Positions 6,440-39,626 of a stretch of DNA of 42,065 bases are shown one piece after another. How positions within the stretch are numbered: the stretch's first letter is position 1; each line of letters starts with the position of its first letter. The notes under the pieces are model-generated. The model was given only the letters and a program-made list of their open reading frames with translations, was not told the origin of the DNA and searched no databases. Position numbers and translations under genes: made by a program. Source of the DNA: Escherichia coli (GTDB taxonomy: Bacteria > Pseudomonadota > Gammaproteobacteria > Enterobacterales > Enterobacteriaceae); NCBI RefSeq assembly GCF_003334255.1, contig NZ_QOWU01000050.1; one strand, written 5' to 3'.

Positions 6440-8722
<2,283 letters not shown>

Positions 8723-21788: not shown

Positions 21789-23537
21789 ATGCATAACGAC
21801 AAAGATCTCTCTACGTGGCAGACGTTCCGCCGACTGTGGCCAACCATTGCGCCTTTTAAAGCGGGTCTGATCGTGGCGGGCGTAGCGTTAATCCTCAACG
21901 CAGCCAGCGATACCTTCATGTTATCGCTCCTTAAGCCACTTCTTGATGATGGCTTTGGTAAAACAGATCGCTCCGTGCTGGTGTGGATGCCGCTGGTGGT
22001 GATCGGGCTGATGATTTTACGTGGTATCACCAGCTATGTCTCCAGCTACTGTATCTCCTGGGTATCAGGAAAGGTGGTAATGACCATGCGTCGCCGCCTG
22101 TTTGGTCACATGATGGGAATGCCGGTTTCATTTTTTGACAAACAGTCAACGGGGACGCTGTTGTCACGTATCACCTACGATTCCGAACAGGTTGCTTCTT
22201 CTTCTTCCGGCGCACTGATAACGGTTGTGCGTGAAGGTGCGTCAATCATCGGCCTGTTCATCATGATGTTCTATTACAGTTGGCAACTGTCGATCATTTT
22301 GATTGTGCTGGCACCGATTGTTTCGATTGCGATTCGCGTTGTATCGAAGCGTTTTCGCAACATCAGTAAAAACATGCAGAACACCATGGGACAGGTGACC
22401 ACCAGCGCTGAACAAATGCTGAAAGGCCATAAAGAAGTATTGATTTTCGGTGGTCAGGAAGTGGAAACGAAACGCTTCGATAAAGTCAGCAACCGAATGC
22501 GTCTTCAGGGGATGAAAATGGTTTCAGCCTCTTCCATCTCTGATCCGATCATTCAGCTGATCGCCTCTTTGGCGCTGGCGTTTGTTCTGTATGCGGCGAG
22601 CTTCCCAAGTGTCATGGATAGCCTGACTGCCGGTACGATTACCGTTGTTTTCTCTTCAATGATTGCACTGATGCGTCCGCTGAAATCGCTGACCAACGTT
22701 AACGCCCAGTTCCAGCGCGGTATGGCGGCTTGTCAGACGCTGTTTACCATTCTGGACAGTGAGCAGGAGAAAGACGAAGGTAAGCGCGTGATCGAGCGTG
22801 CGACTGGCGACGTGGAATTCCGCAATGTCACCTTTACTTATCCGGGACGTGACGTACCAGCATTGCGTAACATCAACCTGAAAATTCCGGCAGGGAAGAC
22901 GGTTGCTCTGGTTGGACGCTCTGGTTCGGGTAAATCAACCATCGCCAGCCTGATCACGCGTTTTTACGATATTGATGAAGGCGAAATCCTGATGGATGGT
23001 CACGATCTGCGCGAGTATACACTGGCGTCGTTACGTAACCAGGTTGCTCTGGTGTCGCAGAATGTCCATCTGTTTAACGATACGGTTGCTAACAACATTG
23101 CTTACGCACGGACTGAACAGTACAGCCGTGAGCAAATTGAAGAAGCGGCGCGTATGGCCTACGCCATGGACTTCATCAATAAGATGGATAACGGTCTCGA
23201 TACAGTGATTGGTGAAAACGGCGTGCTGCTCTCTGGCGGTCAGCGTCAGCGTATTGCTATCGCTCGAGCCTTGTTGCGTGATAGCCCGATTCTGATTCTG
23301 GACGAAGCTACCTCGGCTCTGGATACCGAATCCGAACGTGCGATTCAGGCGGCACTGGATGAGTTGCAGAAAAACCGTACCTCTCTGGTGATTGCCCACC
23401 GCTTGTCTACCATTGAAAAGGCAGACGAAATCGTGGTCGTCGAGGATGGTGTCATTGTGGAACGCGGTACGCATAACGATTTGCTTGAGCACCGTGGCGT
23501 TTACGCGCAACTTCACAAAATGCAGTTTGGCCAATGA
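21789..23537 (+). CDS. msbA: lipid A / LPS-core ABC exporter (flippase) MsbA
   Basis: 582-aa ORF with an N-terminal 6-TM domain and a C-terminal ABC ATPase: Walker [10 protein letters not shown], signature LSGGQRQR, Walker B ILILDEAT. Confidence 0.97.
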
Positions 23538-25840: not shown

Positions 25841-26766
<926 letters not shown>

Positions 26767-26919: not shown

Positions 26920-27813
26920 ATGGAACAGCTGCGTGCCGAATTAAGCCATTTACTGGGCGAAAAACTCAGTCGTATTGAGTGCGTCAATGAAAAAGCGGAT
27001 ACGGCGTTGTGGGCTTTGTATGACAGCCAGGGAAACCCAATGCCGTTAATGGCAAGAAGCTTTAGTACGCCCGGAAAAGCCCGACAGCTGGCATGGAAAA
27101 CCACCATGCTGGCAAGAAGTGGGACTGTCCGTATGCCGACTATTTATGGTGTGATGACGCATGAAGAACACCCCGGCCCCGATGTCCTGCTACTGGAGCG
27201 GATGCGTGGTGTTTCGGTGGAAGCACCAGCCCGAACACCAGAACGCTGGGAACAGCTCAAAGACCAAATCGTTGAAGCCTTACTGGCCTGGCACCGTCAG
27301 GACAGTCGCGGTTGCGTCGGCGCGGTCGACAATACTCAGGAAAATTTCTGGCCCTCATGGTACCGGCAACATGTTGAAGTGCTATGGACCACGCTCAATC
27401 AGTTCAATAACACCGGTCTAACGATGCAGGATAAGCGGATCCTGTTCCGCACTCGCGAATGTCTCCCGGCATTATTTGAAGGCTTTAACGACAATTGTGT
27501 GCTGATTCACGGTAACTTCTGTTTACGCAGCATGTTGAAAGATTCGCGCAGCGATCAGTTACTGGCGATGGTCGGGCCGGGACTAATGCTTTGGGCACCG
27601 CGAGAATACGAACTGTTCCGACTAATGGATAATTCTCTGGCGGAAGATTTGCTCTGGAGTTACCTGCAACGCGCGCCAGTGGCGGAGTCGTTCATCTGGC
27701 GGCGTTGGTTGTATGTGTTATGGGATGAAGTTGCGCAACTGGTTAATACCGGACGATTTAGTCGGCGCAACTTCGATCTGGCATCAAAATCACTCTTGCC
27801 GTGGCTCGCCTGA
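26920..27813 (+). CDS. ycbJ: kinase/phosphotransferase-like protein YcbJ (function unknown)
   Basis: 297-aa ORF matching YcbJ by sequence as recalled and by position; 3' end overlaps convergent elyC by 24 bp. Confidence 0.8.
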   Translation: MEQLRAELSHLLGEKLSRIECVNEKADTALWALYDSQGNPMPLMARSFSTPGKARQLAWKTTMLARSGTVRMPTIYGVMTHEEHPGPDVLLLERMRGVSVEAPARTPERWEQLKDQIVEALLAWHRQDSRGCVGAVDNTQENFWPSWYRQHVEVLWTTLNQFNNTGLTMQDKRILFRTRECLPALFEGFNDNCVLIHGNFCLRSMLKDSRSDQLLAMVGPGLMLWAPREYELFRLMDNSLAEDLLWSYLQRAPVAESFIWRRWLYVLWDEVAQLVNTGRFSRRNFDLASKSLLPWLA

Positions 27814-28569
27814 CGAACCTTTTAGCCACTGCCAGATACGGCCAAGCGTTTCATAGCCAACACGATCGCTATGCATCAACCAGACCGGAGAAGGGATTGC
27901 CCGTTCCCACGGGTTAAGCGGCGAGTCGATGGCCAACTGATTCGCCGGGGCTGGTAGCGGATTTAACCCTTCCTGCTGAAAAAAGATCATCGCCCGCGGC
28001 AGATGTGATGCGGAGGTCACCAGCAGGAAAGGGGCGTCACCAATCGCCTGTTTCACTGCCGCAGCTTCTTCTTCGGTATCTTTTGGCAAATCCAGGGTGA
28101 TAATTTGCTCGCGCGGCACGCCCAGCGATTGCGCAACTCTGGCACCTACTTCCGCTGTACTCACCGTATTGGTTTTTGCTACGCCTCCCGTGAAGATCAG
28201 TTTTGATCCAGGATTTTCGCGCCATAAGCGAATACCTTCATTCAGGCGTGGCAGACTGTTATTGATTAAATTAGAGCTCGGTGCCCACTGCGGGTTCCAG
28301 GTATAACCACCTCCGAGCACCACGATATAGTCCACTTTTTGCGAATTATTCCATGTCGGATAGGTGCTTTCGATGGGACGCAGCAGGCGGTCGGCTACCG
28401 GTTGCAAACTCAATAACAAGAGCGCCAGCCACCCAATGCTAATAAAAATCTTCCCGGTTTTTTGAAAACGGCTAAACCACAGCAGCGCCAGGCCAGCGCC
28501 AATAATCAACAACATTAGCGGAAGTGGCAGCAACATATTGCCAATCACTTTTTTCAGTGTAAAAAGCAT
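27790..28569 (-). CDS. elyC: envelope biogenesis factor ElyC (DUF218)
   Basis: 259-aa ORF with N-terminal transmembrane segments (MLFTLKKVIGNMLLPLPLMLLIIGAGLALLWF...) and a DUF218 domain. Confidence 0.85.
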   Translation of the reverse strand: MLFTLKKVIGNMLLPLPLMLLIIGAGLALLWFSRFQKTGKIFISIGWLALLLLSLQPVADRLLRPIESTYPTWNNSQKVDYIVVLGGGYTWNPQWAPSSNLINNSLPRLNEGIRLWRENPGSKLIFTGGVAKTNTVSTAEVGARVAQSLGVPREQIITLDLPKDTEEEAAAVKQAIGDAPFLLVTSASHLPRAMIFFQQEGLNPLPAPANQLAIDSPLNPWERAIPSPVWLMHSDRVGYETLGRIWQWLKGSSGEPRQE

Positions 28570-28704
28570 CCTTTCTGGTTCCTTTTTTAACCATATAGCA
28601 AGGGATCGCCAGCGATATTACACCAGACGGGTTCATTCTCGCCGTGGCTGTGACAAAATAGCGTCTTTATCAGAAAACGTCTTAGCCAACCGGTGGAGAA
28701 AGCA

Positions 28705-29490
28705 ATGCAGGATCGCAATTTTGATGATATTGCGGAAAAGTTTTCCCGTAACATTTACGGCACCACCAAAGGGCAGCTTCGACAGGCTATTCTGTGGCAG
28801 GATCTCGATCGCGTGCTGGCGGAAATGGGCCCGCAAAAACTGCGTGTGCTGGATGCTGGCGGTGGAGAAGGGCAGACCGCAATCAAAATGGCCGAGTGTG
28901 GGCATCAGGTCATTTTATGCGATCTTTCTGCGCAGATGATCGACCGCGCAAAACAGGCGGCAGAAGCAAAAGGTGTGAGCGACAACATGCAATTTATACA
29001 TTGCGCCGCTCAGGATGTTGCTTCGCATTTGGAAACGCCCGTTGATCTGATATTGTTCCATGCGGTGCTCGAGTGGGTGGCCGATCCCCGCAGTGTATTG
29101 CAGACCCTGTGGTCAGTGTTGCGTCCAGGCGGCGTGTTGTCGTTAATGTTCTACAATGCGCATGGTTTGTTGATGCATAACATGGTCGCCGGGAATTTTG
29201 ATTACGTGCAGGCGGGAATGCCGAAAAAGAAAAAACGGACGCTTTCGCCAGATTATCCACGCGACCCGGCGCAGGTTTATCTGTGGCTGGAAGAAGCTGG
29301 TTGGCAAATTATGGGTAAGACAGGCGTTCGCGTGTTTCATGATTATCTGCGCGAGAAACACCAGCAGCGCGACTGCTATGAAGCATTACTTGAATTAGAA
29401 ACGCGTTATTGCCGTCAGGAACCGTATATTACCCTGGGGCGTTATATTCATGTCACCGCGCGCAAACCGCAGAGCAAGGATAAAGTATGA
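28705..29490 (+). CDS. cmoM: SAM-dependent tRNA methyltransferase CmoM (formerly SmtA)
   Basis: 261-aa ORF starting [13 protein letters not shown] with SAM-binding motif VLDAGGGEG; ggag Shine-Dalgarno. The GTG-initiated 4-codon extension in the ORF track is rejected. Confidence 0.85.
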
Positions 29491-30809
29491 GTGAATTTTC
29501 CCAGACAGTCCCCGAACTGGTTGCCTGGGCCAGAAAAAATGACTTCTCCATCTCGCTGCCGGTAGACCGACTCTCTTTTCTGCTGGCGGTTGCCACGCTG
29601 AACGGCGAGCGTCTGGATGGTGAGATGAGTGAAGGCGAGCTGGTGGATGCATTCCGCCATGTGAGTGATGCGTTTGAGCAAACCAGCGAAACCATCGGCG
29701 TGCGCGCCAATAACGCGATCAACGACATGGTGCGTCAACGTCTGCTGAACCGCTTTACCAGCGAGCAGGCGGAAGGGAACGCAATTTACCGTCTGACGCC
29801 GCTCGGCATCGGCATTACTGACTACTACATCCGTCAGCGCGAGTTTTCTACGCTGCGTCTTTCTATGCAGTTGTCGATTGTGGCGGGTGAGCTCAAACGC
29901 GCAGCAGATGCCGCCGAAGAGGGCGGTGATGAATTTCACTGGCACCGTAATGTCTATGCGCCACTGAAATATTCGGTAGCAGAAATTTTCGACAGTATCG
30001 ACCTGACGCAACGTCTGATGGACGAACAGCAGCAGCAGGTGAAGGACGATATCGCCCAGTTGCTGAACAAAGACTGGCGGGCGGCGATTTCCAGCTGTGA
30101 ATTGTTGCTTTCGGAAACTTCCGGAACGCTGCGTGAATTGCAGGATACGCTGGAAGCGGCAGGCGACAAATTGCAGGCTAATCTGTTGCGCATTCAGGAT
30201 GCGACGATGACCCATGACGATCTGCATTTCGTCGATCGTCTGGTGTTCGATCTGCAGAGCAAACTCGATCGTATTATCAGTTGGGGCCAGCAATCCATCG
30301 ACTTGTGGATTGGCTACGACCGCCACGTACACAAATTTATTCGTACCGCGATCGATATGGATAAAAACCGCGTCTTTGCTCAGCGGTTACGTCAGTCGGT
30401 ACAAACCTATTTTGATGAGCCGTGGGCGCTAACTTATGCCAATGCCGATCGTCTGCTGGATATGCGTGACGAAGAGATGGCACTGCGCGATGAAGAAGTG
30501 ACTGGGGAACTTCCTGAGGATCTGGAATACGAAGAGTTTAACGAGATCCGCGAACAGCTGGCGGCGATCATCGAAGAACAACTTGCCGTGTACAAAACCA
30601 GACAAGTGCCGCTGGATCTTGGTCTGGTGGTACGCGAATATCTGTCACAGTATCCGCGTGCACGTCACTTTGACGTTGCGCGTATTGTTATTGATCAGGC
30701 GGTACGTCTTGGCGTAGCGCAAGCAGATTTCACCGGACTGCCAGCGAAATGGCAGCCGATTAATGATTACGGAGCCAAGGTACAGGCGCATGTCATCGAC
30801 AAATATTGA
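29487..30809 (+). CDS. mukF: condensin kleisin subunit MukF
   Basis: 440-aa ORF ([40 protein letters not shown]...); start overlaps the cmoM stop (ATGA). Confidence 0.95.
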
Positions 30810-31494
30810 ACAAGTGATGCCGGTTAAGCTGGCGCAGGCGCTGGCGAATCCGTTATTTCCGGCGCTGGACAGCGCCTTACGTTCAGGCCGCCATATTGGC
30901 CTCGACGAACTGGATAATCATGCATTCCTGATGGATTTTCAGGAATATCTGGAAGAGTTTTACGCGCGTTATAACGTTGAGCTTATTCGCGCACCGGAAG
31001 GGTTCTTCTATTTACGCCCACGTTCCACCACTCTTATCCCGCGTTCCGTCTTGTCGGAACTGGATATGATGGTCGGGAAAATCCTCTGTTATCTCTATCT
31101 CAGCCCGGAACGGCTGGCGAATGAGGGGATTTTCACCCAGCAGGAACTGTACGACGAACTGCTCACCCTGGCCGATGAAGCAAAACTGCTGAAACTGGTG
31201 AACAACCGTTCAACCGGTTCAGACGTTGACCGTCAGAAGTTGCAGGAGAAAGTACGTTCTTCGCTCAACCGTCTGCGTCGTTTAGGCATGGTGTGGTTTA
31301 TGGGCCACGACAGCAGCAAGTTTCGCATTACCGAATCGGTGTTCCGCTTCGGAGCCGATGTGCGTGCTGGCGACGATCCCCGTGAAGCACAGCGTCGCCT
31401 GATTCGTGATGGCGAAGCAATGCCGATTGAAAATCATCTGCAACTCAACGATGAAACCGAAGAGAATCAGCCAGATAGCGGAGAGGAAGAATAA
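30790..31494 (+). CDS. mukE: condensin subunit MukE
   Basis: 234-aa ORF from the ATG at 30790 ([16 protein letters not shown]...), overlapping mukF by 20 nt; alternative in-frame starts at 30763 and 30817 cannot be excluded from sequence alone. Confidence 0.8.
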
Positions 31495-34400
31495 TGATTG
31501 AACGCGGTAAATTTCGCTCACTGACGCTGATTAACTGGAACGGCTTTTTTGCCCGAACTTTTGACCTTGACGAGCTGGTCACGACGCTTTCTGGCGGTAA
31601 CGGGGCGGGTAAATCCACCACCATGGCGGCGTTCGTTACGGCGCTGATCCCCGACCTGACCCTGCTGCATTTCCGTAACACTACGGAAGCCGGGGCCACC
31701 AGCGGTTCGCGCGATAAAGGTCTGCACGGTAAGCTGAAAGCGGGTGTCTGTTATTCGATGCTCGACACCATTAACTCGCGCCACCAGCGCGTGGTGGTCG
31801 GTGTGCGTCTGCAACAGGTTGCCGGACGCGATCGTAAAGTGGATATCAAACCATTTGCCATTCAGGGACTGCCGATGTCGGTGCAGCCGACACAGCTGGT
31901 GACCGAAACCCTGAACGAACGCCAGGCGCGCGTGCTGCCGCTTAACGAGCTGAAAGACAAGCTCGAGGCGATGGAAGGCGTGCAGTTTAAACAGTTCAAC
32001 TCCATTACCGATTACCACTCGCTGATGTTCGATCTGGGCATCATCGCGCGTCGTCTGCGCTCCGCATCTGACCGTAGCAAATTCTATCGTCTGATCGAAG
32101 CTTCGCTGTATGGCGGGATCTCCAGTGCCATTACCCGTTCTCTGCGCGACTACCTGTTGCCGGAAAACAGCGGCGTGCGTAAAGCGTTCCAGGACATGGA
32201 AGCGGCGCTGCGTGAAAACCGCATGACGCTGGAAGCGATTCGTGTCACCCAGTCGGACCGTGACCTGTTTAAGCATCTGATCAGCGAAGCTACCAACTAC
32301 GTGGCGGCGGACTACATGCGTCACGCCAACGAGCGCCGTGTCCATCTCGACAAAGCCCTGGAGTTTCGTCGCGAGTTACATACTTCGCGTCAGCAACTGG
32401 CGGCTGAGCAGTACAAACACGTCGATATGGCGCGTGAGCTGGCAGAGCACAACGGTGCCGAAGGCGATCTGGAAGCGGATTATCAGGCGGCCAGCGATCA
32501 CCTGAACCTGGTGCAAACCGCACTGCGTCAGCAGGAGAAGATCGAACGCTACGAAGCGGATCTCGATGAGCTGCAGATCCGTCTGGAAGAGCAAAACGAA
32601 GTGGTGGCAGAAGCCATCGAACGCCAGGAAGAGAACGAGGCTCGCGCGGAAGCTGCCGAACTGGAAGTGGACGAGCTGAAAAGCCAGCTTGCTGACTACC
32701 AGCAGGCGCTGGACGTCCAGCAAACGCGCGCGATCCAGTATAACCAGGCGATTGCTGCGCTTAATCGCGCCAAAGAACTGTGCCATCTGCCGGACTTAAC
32801 CGCCGACAGCGCCGCCGAATGGCTGGAAACCTTCCAGGCGAAAGAGCTGGAAGCGACTGAAAAAATGCTCTCTCTTGAGCAGAAAATGAGCATGGCGCAA
32901 ACCGCGCACAGCCAGTTTGAGCAGGCTTATCAGCTGGTGGTGGCAATCAACGGCCCGCTGGCGCGTAACGAGGCGTGGGATGTCGCTCGCGAACTATTGC
33001 GCGAAGGGGTCGATCAGCGTCACCTGGCAGAGCAGGTTCAACCGTTGCGGATGCGCTTAAGTGAACTGGAACAGCGTCTGCGCGAGCAGCAAGAAGCCGA
33101 ACGCCTGCTGGCAGACTTCTGCAAACGTCAGGGCAAGAATTTTGATATTGATGAACTGGAAGCTCTGCATCAGGAGCTGGAAGCGCGCATTGCCTCTCTT
33201 TCCGATAGCGTGTCTAACGCCCGTGAAGAGCGCATGGCACTGCGCCAGGAACAGGAACAGCTGCAGTCTCGCATTCAGAGTTTGATGCAGCGTGCGCCGG
33301 TTTGGCTGGCAGCGCAAAACAGTCTCAACCAGTTGAGCGAACAGTGCGGCGAAGAGTTTACCTCCAGCCAGGACGTCACCGAATATCTGCAACAGTTGCT
33401 GGAGCGTGAGCGAGAGGCGATTGTTGAACGCGATGAAGTGGGCGCGCGCAAAAACGCCGTCGATGAAGAGATCGAACGTTTAAGCCAGCCTGGCGGCTCT
33501 GAAGATCAGCGTCTGAACGCGCTGGCGGAGCGTTTTGGTGGTGTGCTGCTGTCAGAAATTTATGACGACGTTAGCCTGGAAGATGCGCCGTACTTCTCAG
33601 CGCTGTATGGCCCGTCACGCCACGCCATCGTGGTGCCAGATCTGTCACAGGTAACTGAACACCTGGAAGGCTTGACCGATTGCCCGGAAGATCTCTATCT
33701 GATCGAAGGAGATCCGCAGTCATTCGATGACAGCGTGTTCAGCGTTGATGAGCTGGAAAAAGCGGTAGTGGTGAAAATCGCCGATCGTCAGTGGCGTTAT
33801 TCACGTTTCCCGGAAGTGCCGCTGTTTGGTCGTGCTGCGCGTGAAAGCCGTATTGAAAGCCTCCATGCCGAGCGTGAAGTGCTTTCCGAACGCTTCGCCA
33901 CGCTCTCCTTTGATGTACAGAAAACTCAGCGTCTGCATCAGGCGTTCAGCCGCTTTATCGGCAGTCATCTGGCGGTTGCGTTTGAGTCTGACCCGGAAGC
34001 AGAAATCCGTCAACTGAACAGCCGTCGCGTCGAACTGGAGCGGGCGTTGAGTAATCATGAAAATGATAACCAGCAGCAGCGTATTCAGTTTGAGCAGGCG
34101 AAAGAAGGCGTTACGGCGCTGAACCGCATTCTGCCGCGTCTCAACCTGTTGGCTGATGACAGCCTGGCGGATCGCGTCGATGAAATCCGCGAACGTCTGG
34201 ATGAAGCCCAGGAAGCCGCGCGTTTTGTTCAGCAGTTTGGCAATCAACTGGCGAAACTGGAACCGATCGTTTCGGTATTGCAGAGCGACCCGGAACAGTT
34301 CGAACAGCTAAAAGAAGATTACGCGTACTCTCAGCAGATGCAGCGCGATGCCCGTCAGCAGGCGTTTGCCCTGACGGAAGTGGTGCAGCGTCGTGCGCAC

Positions 34401-35954
34401 TTTAGCTATTCTGACTCGGCAGAAATGCTGAGCGGTAATAGCGATCTCAACGAAAAGCTGCGTGAACGTCTGGAACAGGCGGAAGCGGAGCGTACTCGCG
34501 CTCGTGAAGCGTTGCGTGGTCACGCAGCGCAGTTGAGTCAGTACAACCAGGTGCTGGCTTCGCTGAAAAGTTCTTACGACACCAAAAAAGAGCTACTCAA
34601 CGATCTGCAACGTGAATTGCAGGATATCGGCGTGCGCGCCGATAGCGGGGCAGAAGAGCGGGCGCGAATTCGCCGTGACGAGCTGCATGCGCAACTGAGT
34701 AATAACCGGTCCCGCCGCAACCAGCTGGAAAAAGCACTGACTTTCTGCGAAGCGGAGATGGACAATCTGACCCGCAAACTGCGCAAGCTGGAGCGGGATT
34801 ACTTTGAGATGCGCGAGCAGGTAGTGACCGCCAAAGCGGGCTGGTGTGCAGTGATGCGCATGGTGAAAGATAACGGCGTTGAACGGCGCTTACACCGTCG
34901 CGAGCTGGCTTATCTCTCCGCTGATGATTTGCGCTCTATGTCGGATAAGGCATTGGGTGCGCTGCGTCTGGCGGTGGCGGATAACGAACATCTGCGCGAC
35001 GTGCTGCGCATGTCGGAAGATCCAAAACGTCCGGAACGTAAAATTCAGTTCTTCGTGGCGGTTTATCAGCATCTGCGTGAACGTATTCGTCAGGATATTA
35101 TTCGTACCGATGATCCGGTGGAAGCCATCGAGCAGATGGAAATCGAACTTAGCCGACTGACCGAGGAGTTAACCTCCCGCGAACAGAAACTGGCGATCAG
35201 TTCCCGCAGCGTGGCGAACATCATTCGCAAAACCATTCAGCGCGAGCAGAACCGTATCCGTATGCTCAACCAGGGGTTGCAGAACGTATCGTTTGGTCAG
35301 GTGAACAGCGTACGTCTGAACGTGAACGTGCGTGAAACGCACGCCATGCTGCTGGATGTGCTCTCTGAACAGCACGAGCAGCATCAGGATCTGTTTAACA
35401 GCAACCGTCTGACCTTCTCGGAAGCGCTGGCGAAATTGTATCAGCGTCTTAATCCGCAGATTGATATGGGGCAGCGCACGCCGCAGACCATTGGCGAAGA
35501 ACTGCTGGATTACCGCAACTATCTGGAAATGGAAGTTGAGGTTAATCGTGGTTCCGATGGCTGGTTGCGCGCAGAGTCTGGTGCATTGTCGACCGGTGAG
35601 GCGATTGGTACCGGTATGTCGATTCTGGTGATGGTGGTACAAAGCTGGGAAGATGAATCTCGCCGCCTGCGCGGTAAAGATATCTCTCCTTGCCGCCTGC
35701 TGTTCCTCGATGAAGCAGCGCGACTGGATGCTCGTTCTATCGCCACGCTGTTTGAATTGTGTGAACGTTTGCAAATGCAGCTCATCATCGCAGCGCCGGA
35801 AAATATCAGCCCGGAGAAAGGCACCACCTATAAACTGGTGCGTAAAGTCTTCCAGAATACCGAACACGTTCACGTCGTCGGCCTGCGAGGATTTGCGCCG
35901 CAACTCCCTGAAACGCTTCCAGGAAGTGACGAAGCGCCTTCTCAGGCGAGTTAA
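31494..35954 (+). CDS. mukB: SMC-like condensin ATPase MukB
   Basis: 1486-aa ORF with N-terminal Walker [10 protein letters not shown], long coiled-coil arms and a C-terminal ATPase half; ATG shares one nucleotide with the mukE TAA. Confidence 0.97.
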
Positions 35955-35958
35955 AATT

Positions 35959-35988
35959 AAGGCGGCAGCAATGCCGCCTTTTCTTTTT
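35959..35988 (+). terminator. intrinsic terminator downstream of mukB
   Basis: aaggcggc-agcaat-gccgcctt hairpin followed by ttctttttcc, 5 nt after the mukB stop. Confidence 0.8.
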
Positions 35989-36214
35989 CCGAAAACTCCG
36001 TTTCTGCACTAAAAAAGTGGCACATTACGGCGCGCTTTTCTTTAAACTTCTTTACATTAGGTTATGTAAAAACGTATCGGCGTTTATATACTGAAGATAA
36101 GCCTGATGAGTAACAGGCTTGCTCGTCATACTTTCGTGAGTATTGGCGTTGTACAGGCAAGTCGTAAAATAACAGCCTGGCTATTCAGAGTATGATAAAA
36201 ACAGGGGGCAAGGG

Positions 36215-39528: not shown

Positions 39529-39626
39529 GCCGGATGCGGCACGAGCGCCTTATCCGGCCTACAAAATCGTGCAAATTCAAAATATTGCAGGGGACGCGTA
39601 GGCCTGATAAGCGTAGCGCATCAGGC
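39529..39626. repeat. BIME: two inverted REP (repetitive extragenic palindromic) units
   Basis: gccggatgcggcacgagcgccttatccggcctac (39529-39562) and inverted copy gtaggcctgataagcgtagcgcatcaggc (39598-39626) match the REP consensus family as I recall it; located between convergent gloC and aspC. Confidence 0.75.

Follow-up and report, generated by a model that had tools for sequence, protein, structure and literature searches.

The smtA-mukF-mukE-mukB operon of Escherichia coli K-12 was described in 1996 (Yamanaka et al., as cited in PMC4255302 and PMC3871593), and its first gene, smtA, has since been renamed cmoM, its product being a tRNA cmo5U34 methyltransferase (PMC4737166). The other three genes encode the MukBEF complex, whose composition is B2:E4:F2 and not 1:1:1, which calls for twice as much MukE as MukF. 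An smtA-mukFEB operon has also been predicted, in a published study, for Vibrio fischeri. Closely packed co-directional genes are frequent in E. coli: 707 of 2,987 co-directional pairs (24%) lie within -8 to +6 nt of each other, the order of frequency being -4, then -1, then -8 (PMC10666635). Subunits of complexes are 4.5-fold overrepresented among genes with short overlaps, and distances from -8 to +10 nt are taken as predictive of termination-reinitiation (PMC10666635). Among five native E. coli pairs with a -4 overlap that were tested, four are coupled—three strictly and menDH at about 60%—and bioBF is the one pair without coupling (PMC6728339).

The window analyzed here is a 42,065-nt stretch of E. 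coli DNA that carries this operon. Over positions 28500-36100 it is 100% identical to E. coli chromosomes, and the RefSeq/PGAP coordinates match those of the four genes:

28705..29490, + strand: cmoM (smtA) coding sequence, 261 aa, tRNA cmo5U34 methyltransferase (PGAP; NCBIfam NF008264)
29487..30809, + strand: mukF coding sequence, 440 aa, kleisin subunit (PGAP; NCBIfam NF003615)
30790..31494, + strand: mukE coding sequence, 234 aa, from the best-supported start
31494..35954, + strand: mukB coding sequence, 1486 aa, SMC-like ATPase (PGAP; NCBIfam NF003422)

All four products score above the cut-offs of their NCBIfam models (CmoM, equivalog NF008264, 502 bits vs 366; MukF, NF003615, 845 vs 407; MukE, equivalog match, 412 vs 250; MukB, NF003422, 2647 vs 699), and the 234-aa MukE is identical in sequence to PDB 3EUH. 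These scores and the PGAP names agree with the gene names in the original prediction, which were correct. The genes share one order and strand, with elyC upstream and ldtD downstream in the annotated identical chromosome, and the kleisin, MukE and MukB genes stand side by side in the F-E-B order of a MukBEF condensin locus. Set against the K-12 operon, the locus, genes, order and coordinates are the same, with no difference. The cmoM-mukFEB operon with these junctions is already known, and for a textbook operon we restate the annotated structure; what is added here is comparative detail on the drift of the junctions and on the mukE initiation region.

The four coding sequences are joined by three overlaps:

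29487..29490, + strand: ATGA junction of cmoM and mukF, with the mukF ATG at 29487-89 and the cmoM TGA at 29488-90; overlap of 4 nt
30790..30809, + strand: mukF/mukE overlap of 20 nt, dual coding (MukF ..HVIDKY*, MukE MSSTNIE..), with the mukF TGA at 30807-30809
31492..31496, + strand: TAATG junction of mukE and mukB, with the mukE TAA at 31492-94 and the mukB ATG at 31494-96; 1 shared base

These lengths bear out to the base the overlaps of 4 (ATGA), 20 and 1 (TAATG) nt first read from the sequence, and the further ATGA junctions named with them, at msbA/lpxK (23534-23537) and ycaR/kdsB (26020-26023), are likewise present. In the annotated part of the window, from pflB to ompF (from position 8500), overlaps occur at 5 of 21 co-directional junctions (24%). 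The 4- and 1-nt overlaps are the commonest co-directional types in E. coli, so that single junctions of this kind do not go beyond chance, and the finding, resting on such common junctions, is ordinary. The 20-nt overlap is a rarer kind and, to judge from the species comparison, no accident of one strain, because it is conserved at -20 in 79 of 79 Enterobacteriaceae species; Rahnella, Erwinia and Ca. Symbiodolus have it as well.

The comparison set comprised those 79 Enterobacteriaceae species together with Erwinia, Rahnella and the insect symbiont Ca. Symbiodolus. A genome-collection scan with a MukE alignment contributed its best 80 loci, all from Enterobacteriaceae, and wider MukBEF diversity was represented by 12 single-protein look-ups, many from metagenome contigs. 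Across 76 species the distance between cmoM and mukF takes the values -8, -4 and +3; the cmoM stop and its frame shift among three positions between species, yet the interval from -8 to +3 nt is never left, which suggests selection for proximity. The mukE/mukB junction is -1 in 62 cases, -4 in 15 and -8 in 3. The same junction layout is found in Rahnella, Erwinia and Symbiodolus, and the first two also share the synteny ycbJ-elyC-cmoM-mukFEB. More distantly, every MukBEF/MksBEF locus examined has the order kleisin, MukE, SMC-like ATPase, as here, and most of their junctions overlap by 1-32 nt or leave a gap of 0-1 nt. Several distant MukBEF lineages, however, have spacers of 34-138 nt and lack cmoM upstream, whereas the present locus combines tight packing with cmoM. 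As judged from these sequences, tight packing and cmoM linkage are features of a lineage, at least of the Enterobacterales. Overlap is dispensable for MukBEF, because distant loci carry the 34-138-nt spacers, and a tight overlap that is lineage-specific and not universal weakens the argument that it exists for the stoichiometry of the complex.

Two features flank the operon:

28650..28668, + strand: conserved intergenic block GTGACAAAATAGCGTCTTT upstream of cmoM, its columns conserved to 95% or more when 76 distinct upstream regions from Enterobacteriaceae are aligned
35959..35990, + strand: intrinsic-terminator-like hairpin of 9 bp (6 G-C) with a T run, 5 nt past the mukB stop

The upstream block possibly belongs to the operon promoter as an extended -10 element, a reading that its conservation suggests; a strict consensus promoter scan gave no match upstream of cmoM and none within the operon. 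The operon promoter can be placed upstream of smtA because replacement of the promoter there by Para increased MukB 6.3-fold (PMC7163298). The hairpin probably marks the operon end, and a scan inside the operon found no strong internal terminator or promoter. The junctions leave no room for either, and the sequence is consistent with co-transcription.

Every gene of the operon has a Shine-Dalgarno (SD)-like motif before its start. For cmoM this is CGGUGGAGA, 5 nt before the ATG (dG -6.4); those of mukF and mukB lie within the preceding gene:

29476..29480, + strand: AAGGA, SD-like motif for mukF, within the final cmoM codons; dG -5.2
31480..31489, + strand: purine tract GGAGAGGAAG, SD-like for mukB, within the acidic C-terminal mukE codons; dG -6.6

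The motifs of mukF, mukE and mukB range in dG from -5.2 to -6.6, so that they rank within roughly the best 10% of the region's ATG trinucleotides, and they are conserved: before mukF an AAGGA or AAGGA-like purine motif is kept in place across 76 species (rarely CAGGA, as in Erwinia), and GGAGG/GAGGA-type motifs occupy the mukB SD position across species. Such motifs bear on the possibility that the overlaps reflect genome compaction only, each cistron initiating independently at its own SD with upstream translation having no measurable effect. Structure prediction gives an unusually open initiation region for mukB (unpaired probability 0.68 vs an operon mean of 0.38), and the genes' own SD motifs together with this open region would allow independent initiation; the long spacers of distant MukBEF loci and the uncoupled bioBF, one of the five tested -4 pairs, point in the same direction. 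So does genetic evidence from cmoM: a strain carrying the cmoM::kan replacement is able to grow in LB at 37 °C (PMC4737166). Muk function is required for growth in LB at 37 °C. From the Keio design, ribosomes should presumably not reach the ATGA junction in the cmoM::kan strain. The viability of this strain at 37 °C and the SD motifs hint against strict dependence on upstream translation. Weighing against fully independent initiation are the four of five tested -4 pairs that are coupled, one of them partially, the confinement of the cmoM stop to three positions close to mukF, and the predicted structure of the initiation region at 30790, which is comparatively inaccessible (0.29 vs an operon average of 0.38). 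Such lower predicted accessibility would suit a start that is assisted by ribosomes arriving from upstream. The RNA fold at the mukF/mukE junction is itself only marginally more stable than those of shuffled sequences (z = -1.8), too little to claim a structured element, in a region so invariant that it carries no covariation signal to assess, and an Rfam search of the operon gave no match. Taken with its evidence on both sides, independent initiation throughout seems to us unlikely, with a real minority chance of being right.

The reading that we prefer, and hold to be probable, is a single-mRNA cmoM-mukFEB operon with SD-bearing overlapping starts and partial coupling. Searches of the accessible literature found no work on coupling or start mapping in the mukF/mukE operon and nothing useful on polar effects, and the case for coupling is a general one made by analogy, on which translational coupling in cmoM-mukFEB is plausible and probably not obligatory. 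The coupled E. coli pairs hyfHI, astDB, ydbH/ynbE and menDH have the same -4 or -1 overlap types and intragenic SD motifs as cmoM/mukF and mukE/mukB, and both of these junctions (-4 and -1) fall within the -8 to +10 range for termination-reinitiation. The products of mukE and mukB are moreover subunits of one complex, like the pairs held to be coupled by termination-reinitiation (PMC10666635), whereas the products of cmoM and mukF have no known interaction. The mukF/mukE junction differs: measured from 30790 its distance of -20 falls outside the predictive range. On the preferred reading, a single mRNA would run from a promoter upstream of cmoM to the hairpin just past mukB, and each downstream start, placed where the preceding gene ends or shortly before, would be served by its own moderate SD-like motif in the upstream coding sequence. 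At cmoM/mukF and mukE/mukB, terminating ribosomes would most likely aid the next start by termination-reinitiation and unfolding, with direct SD-dependent initiation probably adding to reinitiation; at mukF/mukE the main start would be the ATG at 30790, served by the conserved region at 30765-30794. Coupling along cmoM-mukFEB would then be partial and not obligatory. Reinitiation at 1:1 would by itself be insufficient, because MukE is needed at double the amount of MukF.

The choice of the mukE start rests on two further features, which lie on either side of the mukF stop:

30765..30794, + strand: mukE translation-initiation region, in mukF codons 427-436, with GGAG at 30771-30774, AAGG at 30777-30780 and ATG at 30790; SD dG -5.8
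30817..30819, + strand: second in-frame ATG (MukE Met10), 7 nt past the mukF stop; ATG in 79 of 79 species; no SD, dG -0.2

In-frame ATGs are present at 30763, 30790 and 30817, as the original prediction had listed, and the second of these, which it had held as provisional, is now strongly supported as the start of a 234-aa MukE by synonymous constraint, an invariant ATG and the N-termini of homologues. Synonymous diversity in the initiation region is 0.024 against a mukF mean of 0.40, the lowest of 433 eight-codon windows (75 species), and nowhere in mukF are synonymous sites more constrained than in the 25 nt before 30790. The core of the region, AAGGT.CAGGC.CATGTCATCGA, recurs in Rahnella, Erwinia and Ca. 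Symbiodolus. ATG is found at 30790 in 79 of 79 species: the mukF His codon that carries it is CAT and never CAC, and the CAT and GTC codons of mukF that preserve ATG-TCA never change. On the protein side, the NCBIfam MukE profile begins at residue 3-4 of the 234-aa form, and homologues whose starts are unambiguous have an N-terminal tail of the same length as this form. Experimental start mapping for mukE was looked for in the retapamulin and TRAINSPOTTER start-site literature, and none was found.

Public annotation of MukE is divided: the 234-aa version appears on at least 1000 contigs, the 225-aa version on 516 and the 243-aa version on 28. One might suppose a single MukE start, either at 30817 (225 aa) or at 30763 (243 aa), the 20-nt overlap being an annotation artefact. 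Besides these annotations, the 225-aa form is the one used in two crystal structures (3RPU and 7V8P). The start at 30763 is rejected: it is ACG in 26 of 79 species, lacks an SD (dG -1.8) and would extend the N-terminus beyond that of any homologue. Initiation only at 30817 would leave unexplained both the synonymous conservation of 30765-30789, which lies 28-52 nt upstream and beyond a ribosome footprint, and the invariant CAT and GTC codons that preserve ATG-TCA, and it is at odds with the homologues in which an in-frame stop closely precedes the start and the tail is as long as that of the 234-aa form. We consider a single alternative start of either kind very improbable.

Although 30817 is a poor candidate for the only start, it is possibly an additional one giving a 225-aa MukE. 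Two functional mukE starts would then flank the mukF stop, one at 30790 that is SD-dependent (234 aa) and one at 30817 that lacks an SD and is used through forward termination-reinitiation (225 aa), so as to raise MukE above MukF. The distance of +7 nt from the mukF stop fits the -8 to +10 reinitiation range, the 30817 site is predicted to be open (unpaired probability 0.59), and the complex requires E and F at 2:1. Both ATGs are invariant in the 79 Enterobacteriaceae, and the proteins of Erwinia, Rahnella, Serratia, Pantoea and Photorhabdus retain the two Mets although the adjacent residues 8-9 vary; the 225-aa MukE of 3RPU and 7V8P folds and forms complexes. Recoded genomes are also suggestive: Syn61 keeps forbidden codons in essential mukE, where codons 2-3 are here TCA TCG, and strains without tRNAs for TCA and TCG live, so the downstream start may suffice. 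Set against these points, 30817 has no SD (dG -0.2), its conserved Met may be structural, and Met10 is missing from Pasteurellaceae-type and Symbiodolus homologues (H. ducreyi, L082 and Symbiodolus), so the arrangement would not be general. We regard a pair of functional starts as doubtful, if less so than a single alternative one. If it were true, a two-start device in Enterobacterales would help to set MukE:MukF at 2:1 and would explain how recoded strains unable to read codons 2-3 (TCA TCG) make essential MukE. The choice of start bears on genome recoding in any case, as mukE codons 2-3 stayed unrecoded in Syn61, and since the final ~15 codons of mukF hold the mukE ribosome-binding region, synonymous edits there would not be neutral.

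The place of cmoM as first gene had been called a long-standing curiosity. The linkage is real, conserved across Enterobacterales and long known; it is old, and it has no demonstrated functional tie to MukBEF. A decoding link between CmoM and mukE, in which tRNA-Ser1, a CmoM substrate, reads UCA and UCG at mukE codons 2-3, was set aside as coincidence, because dual coding with mukF already determines the bases of codons 2-3. In most species mukE codon 3 is TTG (Leu).

The region spanning cmoM, mukF, mukE and mukB (28500-36100) matches several complete E. coli chromosomes at 100% identity, and all 5,426 of 5,426 complete E. coli genomes have it at ≥95% identity. Gene coordinates follow RefSeq for one of these identical chromosomes (offset 8,499 bases), and a sequence scan supplied the hairpin listed with them.

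The cmoM-mukFEB operon and its neighbours (RefSeq annotation unless stated)
upstream of cmoM, - (other strand), elyC
28705-29490, +, cmoM
29487-30809, +, mukF
30790-31494, +, mukE
31494-35954, +, mukB
35959-35990, 9-bp G+C-rich hairpin and T run beginning 5 nt after the mukB stop (sequence scan)
downstream of mukB, ldtD

All four products (4/4) score above the curated NCBIfam equivalog cut-offs, and a chain of PDB 3EUH is identical to the MukE encoded here. According to two reviews (PMC4255302; PMC3871593), Yamanaka et al. (1996) described the smtA-mukF-mukE-mukB operon. Its first gene is called unrelated in these reviews, and SmtA was identified in 2015 as the cmo5U methyltransferase CmoM (PMC4737166). 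Co-transcription of smtA/cmoM with the muk genes is supported by the 6.3-fold increase in MukB seen when Para takes the place of the promoter upstream of smtA (PMC7163298), and our sequence scan found no strong consensus promoter or terminator within the operon. The operon has an ordinary architecture that was known before.

The original prediction, that overlapping stop and start codons couple translation along the operon, was exact in every coordinate, as both the sequence and the junction table bear out. The cmoM/mukF junction is an ATGA at 29487-29490, the 20-nt mukF/mukE overlap runs from the mukE ATG at 30790 to the mukF TGA at 30807-30809, and mukE/mukB share a TAATG at 31492-31496. The ATGA junctions of msbA/lpxK (23534-23537) and ycaR/kdsB (26020-26023) and all three in-frame mukE ATGs (30763, 30790 and 30817) are likewise present. 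The interpretation placed on these junctions is reasonable, but it is unproven and goes somewhat too far. Among co-directional genes in E. coli, -4 is the most frequent distance, ahead of -1 and -8, and distances of -8 to +6 account for 707 of 2,987 co-directional pairs, or 24% (PMC10666635). In the annotated part of the window (pflB to ompF, from 8500), 5 of 21 co-directional junctions overlap, again 24%; hence, three overlaps in one operon represent a recurrent pattern and no anomaly. Only the 20-nt mukF/mukE overlap is of a rarer type. Nearby, the convergent genes ycbJ (+, ending at 27813) and elyC (-, ending at 27790) share 24 nt at their 3' ends (27790-27813).

We scanned species-representative genomes and located the four genes by tblastn in each of the best 80 loci, all from Enterobacteriaceae. 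Among the loci listed, the mukF/mukE distance is -20 in 79 of 79, mukE/mukB is -1 in 62, -4 in 15 and -8 in 3, and cmoM/mukF is -8 in 36, -4 in 10 and +3 in 30 (negative values are overlaps in nt, positive values spacers). The frame and position of the cmoM stop differ by genus, always within a few bases of the mukF ATG, and AAGGA or a close purine variant is kept throughout these loci 6 nt 5' of that ATG; therefore, conservation at this junction concerns the ribosome-binding site of mukF and how near the stop lies, rather than the C-terminus of CmoM. For cmoM/mukF, mukF/mukE and mukE/mukB, respectively, the distances are -4, -20 and -4 in Rahnella, -8, -20 and 0 in Erwinia billingiae, and -8 (as called, for a cmoM-like gene), -20 and -7 in the insect symbiont Ca. 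Symbiodolus; all three loci have the core AAGGT.CAGGC.CATGTCATCGA around the mukE start. In the Ca. Symbiodolus clandestinus locus (L085, 4195-4214) the mukF start is called at a CTG (4207). The true start seems to be an in-frame ATG 9 nt further 5', and the overlap with the cmoM-like gene would then be 17 nt rather than 8.

The useful outcome is a well-supported choice of mukE start. The ambiguity is a real annotation inconsistency, since all three versions of the protein are publicly annotated: the 243-aa form on 28 contigs, the 225-aa form on 516 and the 234-aa UniProt form on at least 1000. We rejected 30763 (243 aa), which is ACG in 26 of the 79 species among the loci listed, lacks a Shine-Dalgarno-like (SD) motif (dG -1.8) and would give an N-terminus longer than that of every homologue.

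Support for 30790 (234 aa) is strong. All 79 of the 79 species among the loci listed have this ATG, which spans the mukF codons CAT-GTC, where the synonym CAC, which would destroy it, occurs in 0 of 75 aligned genes. The minimum of mukF synonymous diversity among 433 eight-codon windows falls at codons 427-436 (30765-30794; 0.024 vs a gene mean of 0.40), within which codons 427-433 (GAT TAC GGA GCC AAG GTA CAG) are fully invariant in the 75 aligned genes. This constrained stretch lies just 5' of 30790, where the second reading frame makes no demand, and the simplest reading is that it would be the mukE ribosome-binding region, with GGAG and AAGG (dG -5.8). Within the overlap, 4 of 5 mukF synonymous sites are frozen, and two of the three synonymous alternatives to the GTC codon would interrupt the mukE frame with a stop. 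Homologues with unambiguous starts (the divergent locus L082, H. ducreyi 3EUK and Symbiodolus) have N-terminal tails matching the 234-aa length, and the NCBIfam MukE profile starts at residue 3-4 of this form.

There is a slight and testable chance that 30817 acts as an additional mukE start, so that a second start would flank the mukF stop. This ATG encodes Met10, which is invariant in 79 of 79 species among the loci listed and also kept in Erwinia, Pantoea, Rahnella, Serratia and Photorhabdus proteins, with residues 8-9 variable. It has no SD (dG -0.2), is located in a predicted open region, and lies 7 nt past the mukF stop, within the -8 to +10 reinitiation range of PMC10666635. A 2026 recoding study reports that Syn61 still has forbidden codons in the essential mukE because gene coordinates changed (PMC13287592). 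Codons 2-3 of the 234-aa form are TCA TCG (30793-30798), the two serine codons that recoding took out of Syn61, and we infer that these are the left-over codons; if so, the survival of strains without the matching tRNAs hints that a start further downstream can provide enough MukE. Both codons are decoded by tRNA-Ser1, itself a CmoM substrate (PMC4737166), which is probably a coincidence.

Beyond Enterobacterales, we looked up twelve divergent MukE representatives, in which the F-E-B gene order is constant and the packing variable.

Junction distances in divergent loci (mukF/mukE; mukE/mukB)
L087: -8; -4
L088: -32; -11
L089 (Psittacicella): +1; -8
L090: -4; -4
L093: spacer of 52 nt; -17
L082: spacer of 34 nt, confirmed by an in-frame stop just 5' of mukE
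L084: spacer of 85 nt, confirmed by an in-frame stop just 5' of mukE
L091 (798-2303) and L092 (2546-4108): spacer at either junction, 56-138 nt; long acidic MukE tail

Because packing varies in this way, overlap is common yet no requirement for making MukBEF. At L082, cmoM is absent upstream and the upstream neighbour is divergently transcribed; in Vibrio fischeri a smtA-mukFEB operon is predicted (PMC3948606). Some MukE homologues (P0141, P0143, P0144, P0147 and P0150; 46-58% identical) end in a C-terminal tail of about 150-340 residues that is of low complexity and extremely acidic, whereas the E. coli tail is acidic but short, and its codons double as the mukB SD.

Of five native -4 pairs tested in E. 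coli, four showed translational coupling, strict in three and ~60% in the other (PMC6728339), and distances of -8 to +10 nt are treated as predictive of reinitiation, with complex subunits 4.5-fold enriched at short gene distances (PMC10666635). A spacer of even ~20 nt abolishes coupling. In favor of coupling, cmoM/mukF and mukE/mukB stay in the short-distance range across ~80 species among the loci listed, despite drift of the stops, and predicted folding leaves the 30790 site less open than the operon as a whole (0.29 vs an average of 0.38). Against strict coupling, every downstream start has a conserved SD-like motif of its own, the mukB initiation site is predicted to be very open (0.68), distant lineages have long spacers, and the B2:E4:F2 make-up of the complex requires production of more MukE than MukF. 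Also against it, the Keio cmoM::kan strain was grown in LB at 37 °C (PMC4737166), even though cells deficient in Muk no longer form colonies above 30 °C. In the Keio design, presumably just the final 21 nt of cmoM remain, so that no ribosome reads into the cmoM/mukF junction. The literature searched contained no report of translational coupling in this operon. Partial coupling atop SD-driven initiation would be the most likely mechanism.

Across 76 Enterobacteriaceae upstream regions, the elyC-cmoM spacer contains two blocks conserved at ≥95%, 28617-28640 and 28650-28668. The latter (GTGACAAAATAGCGTCTTT) resembles an extended -10 element and may mark the promoter; a strict promoter scan did not call it. 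The cmoM ORF is open to a GTG four codons 5' of the annotated ATG at 28705 (28693-28707). Only the ATG has an SD (dG -6.4 vs +0.2). In Klebsiella, Raoultella, Kluyvera and related genera (loci L017, L022, L025 and others), a GTG stands where the E. coli cmoM start aligns.

Elsewhere in the window, the sole Rfam match is the sRNA ES036 (CssrF) at 39563-39605 (+) in the gloC-aspC spacer, which scores 53 bits (gathering score 37.6). Long ORFs of 244-750 aa that are absent from the RefSeq annotation lie antisense to pflB, mukF and mukB (6449-8701, +; 29448-30332, -; 31518-32345, -; 35169-35903, -) and probably only mirror the sense genes without coding for protein.
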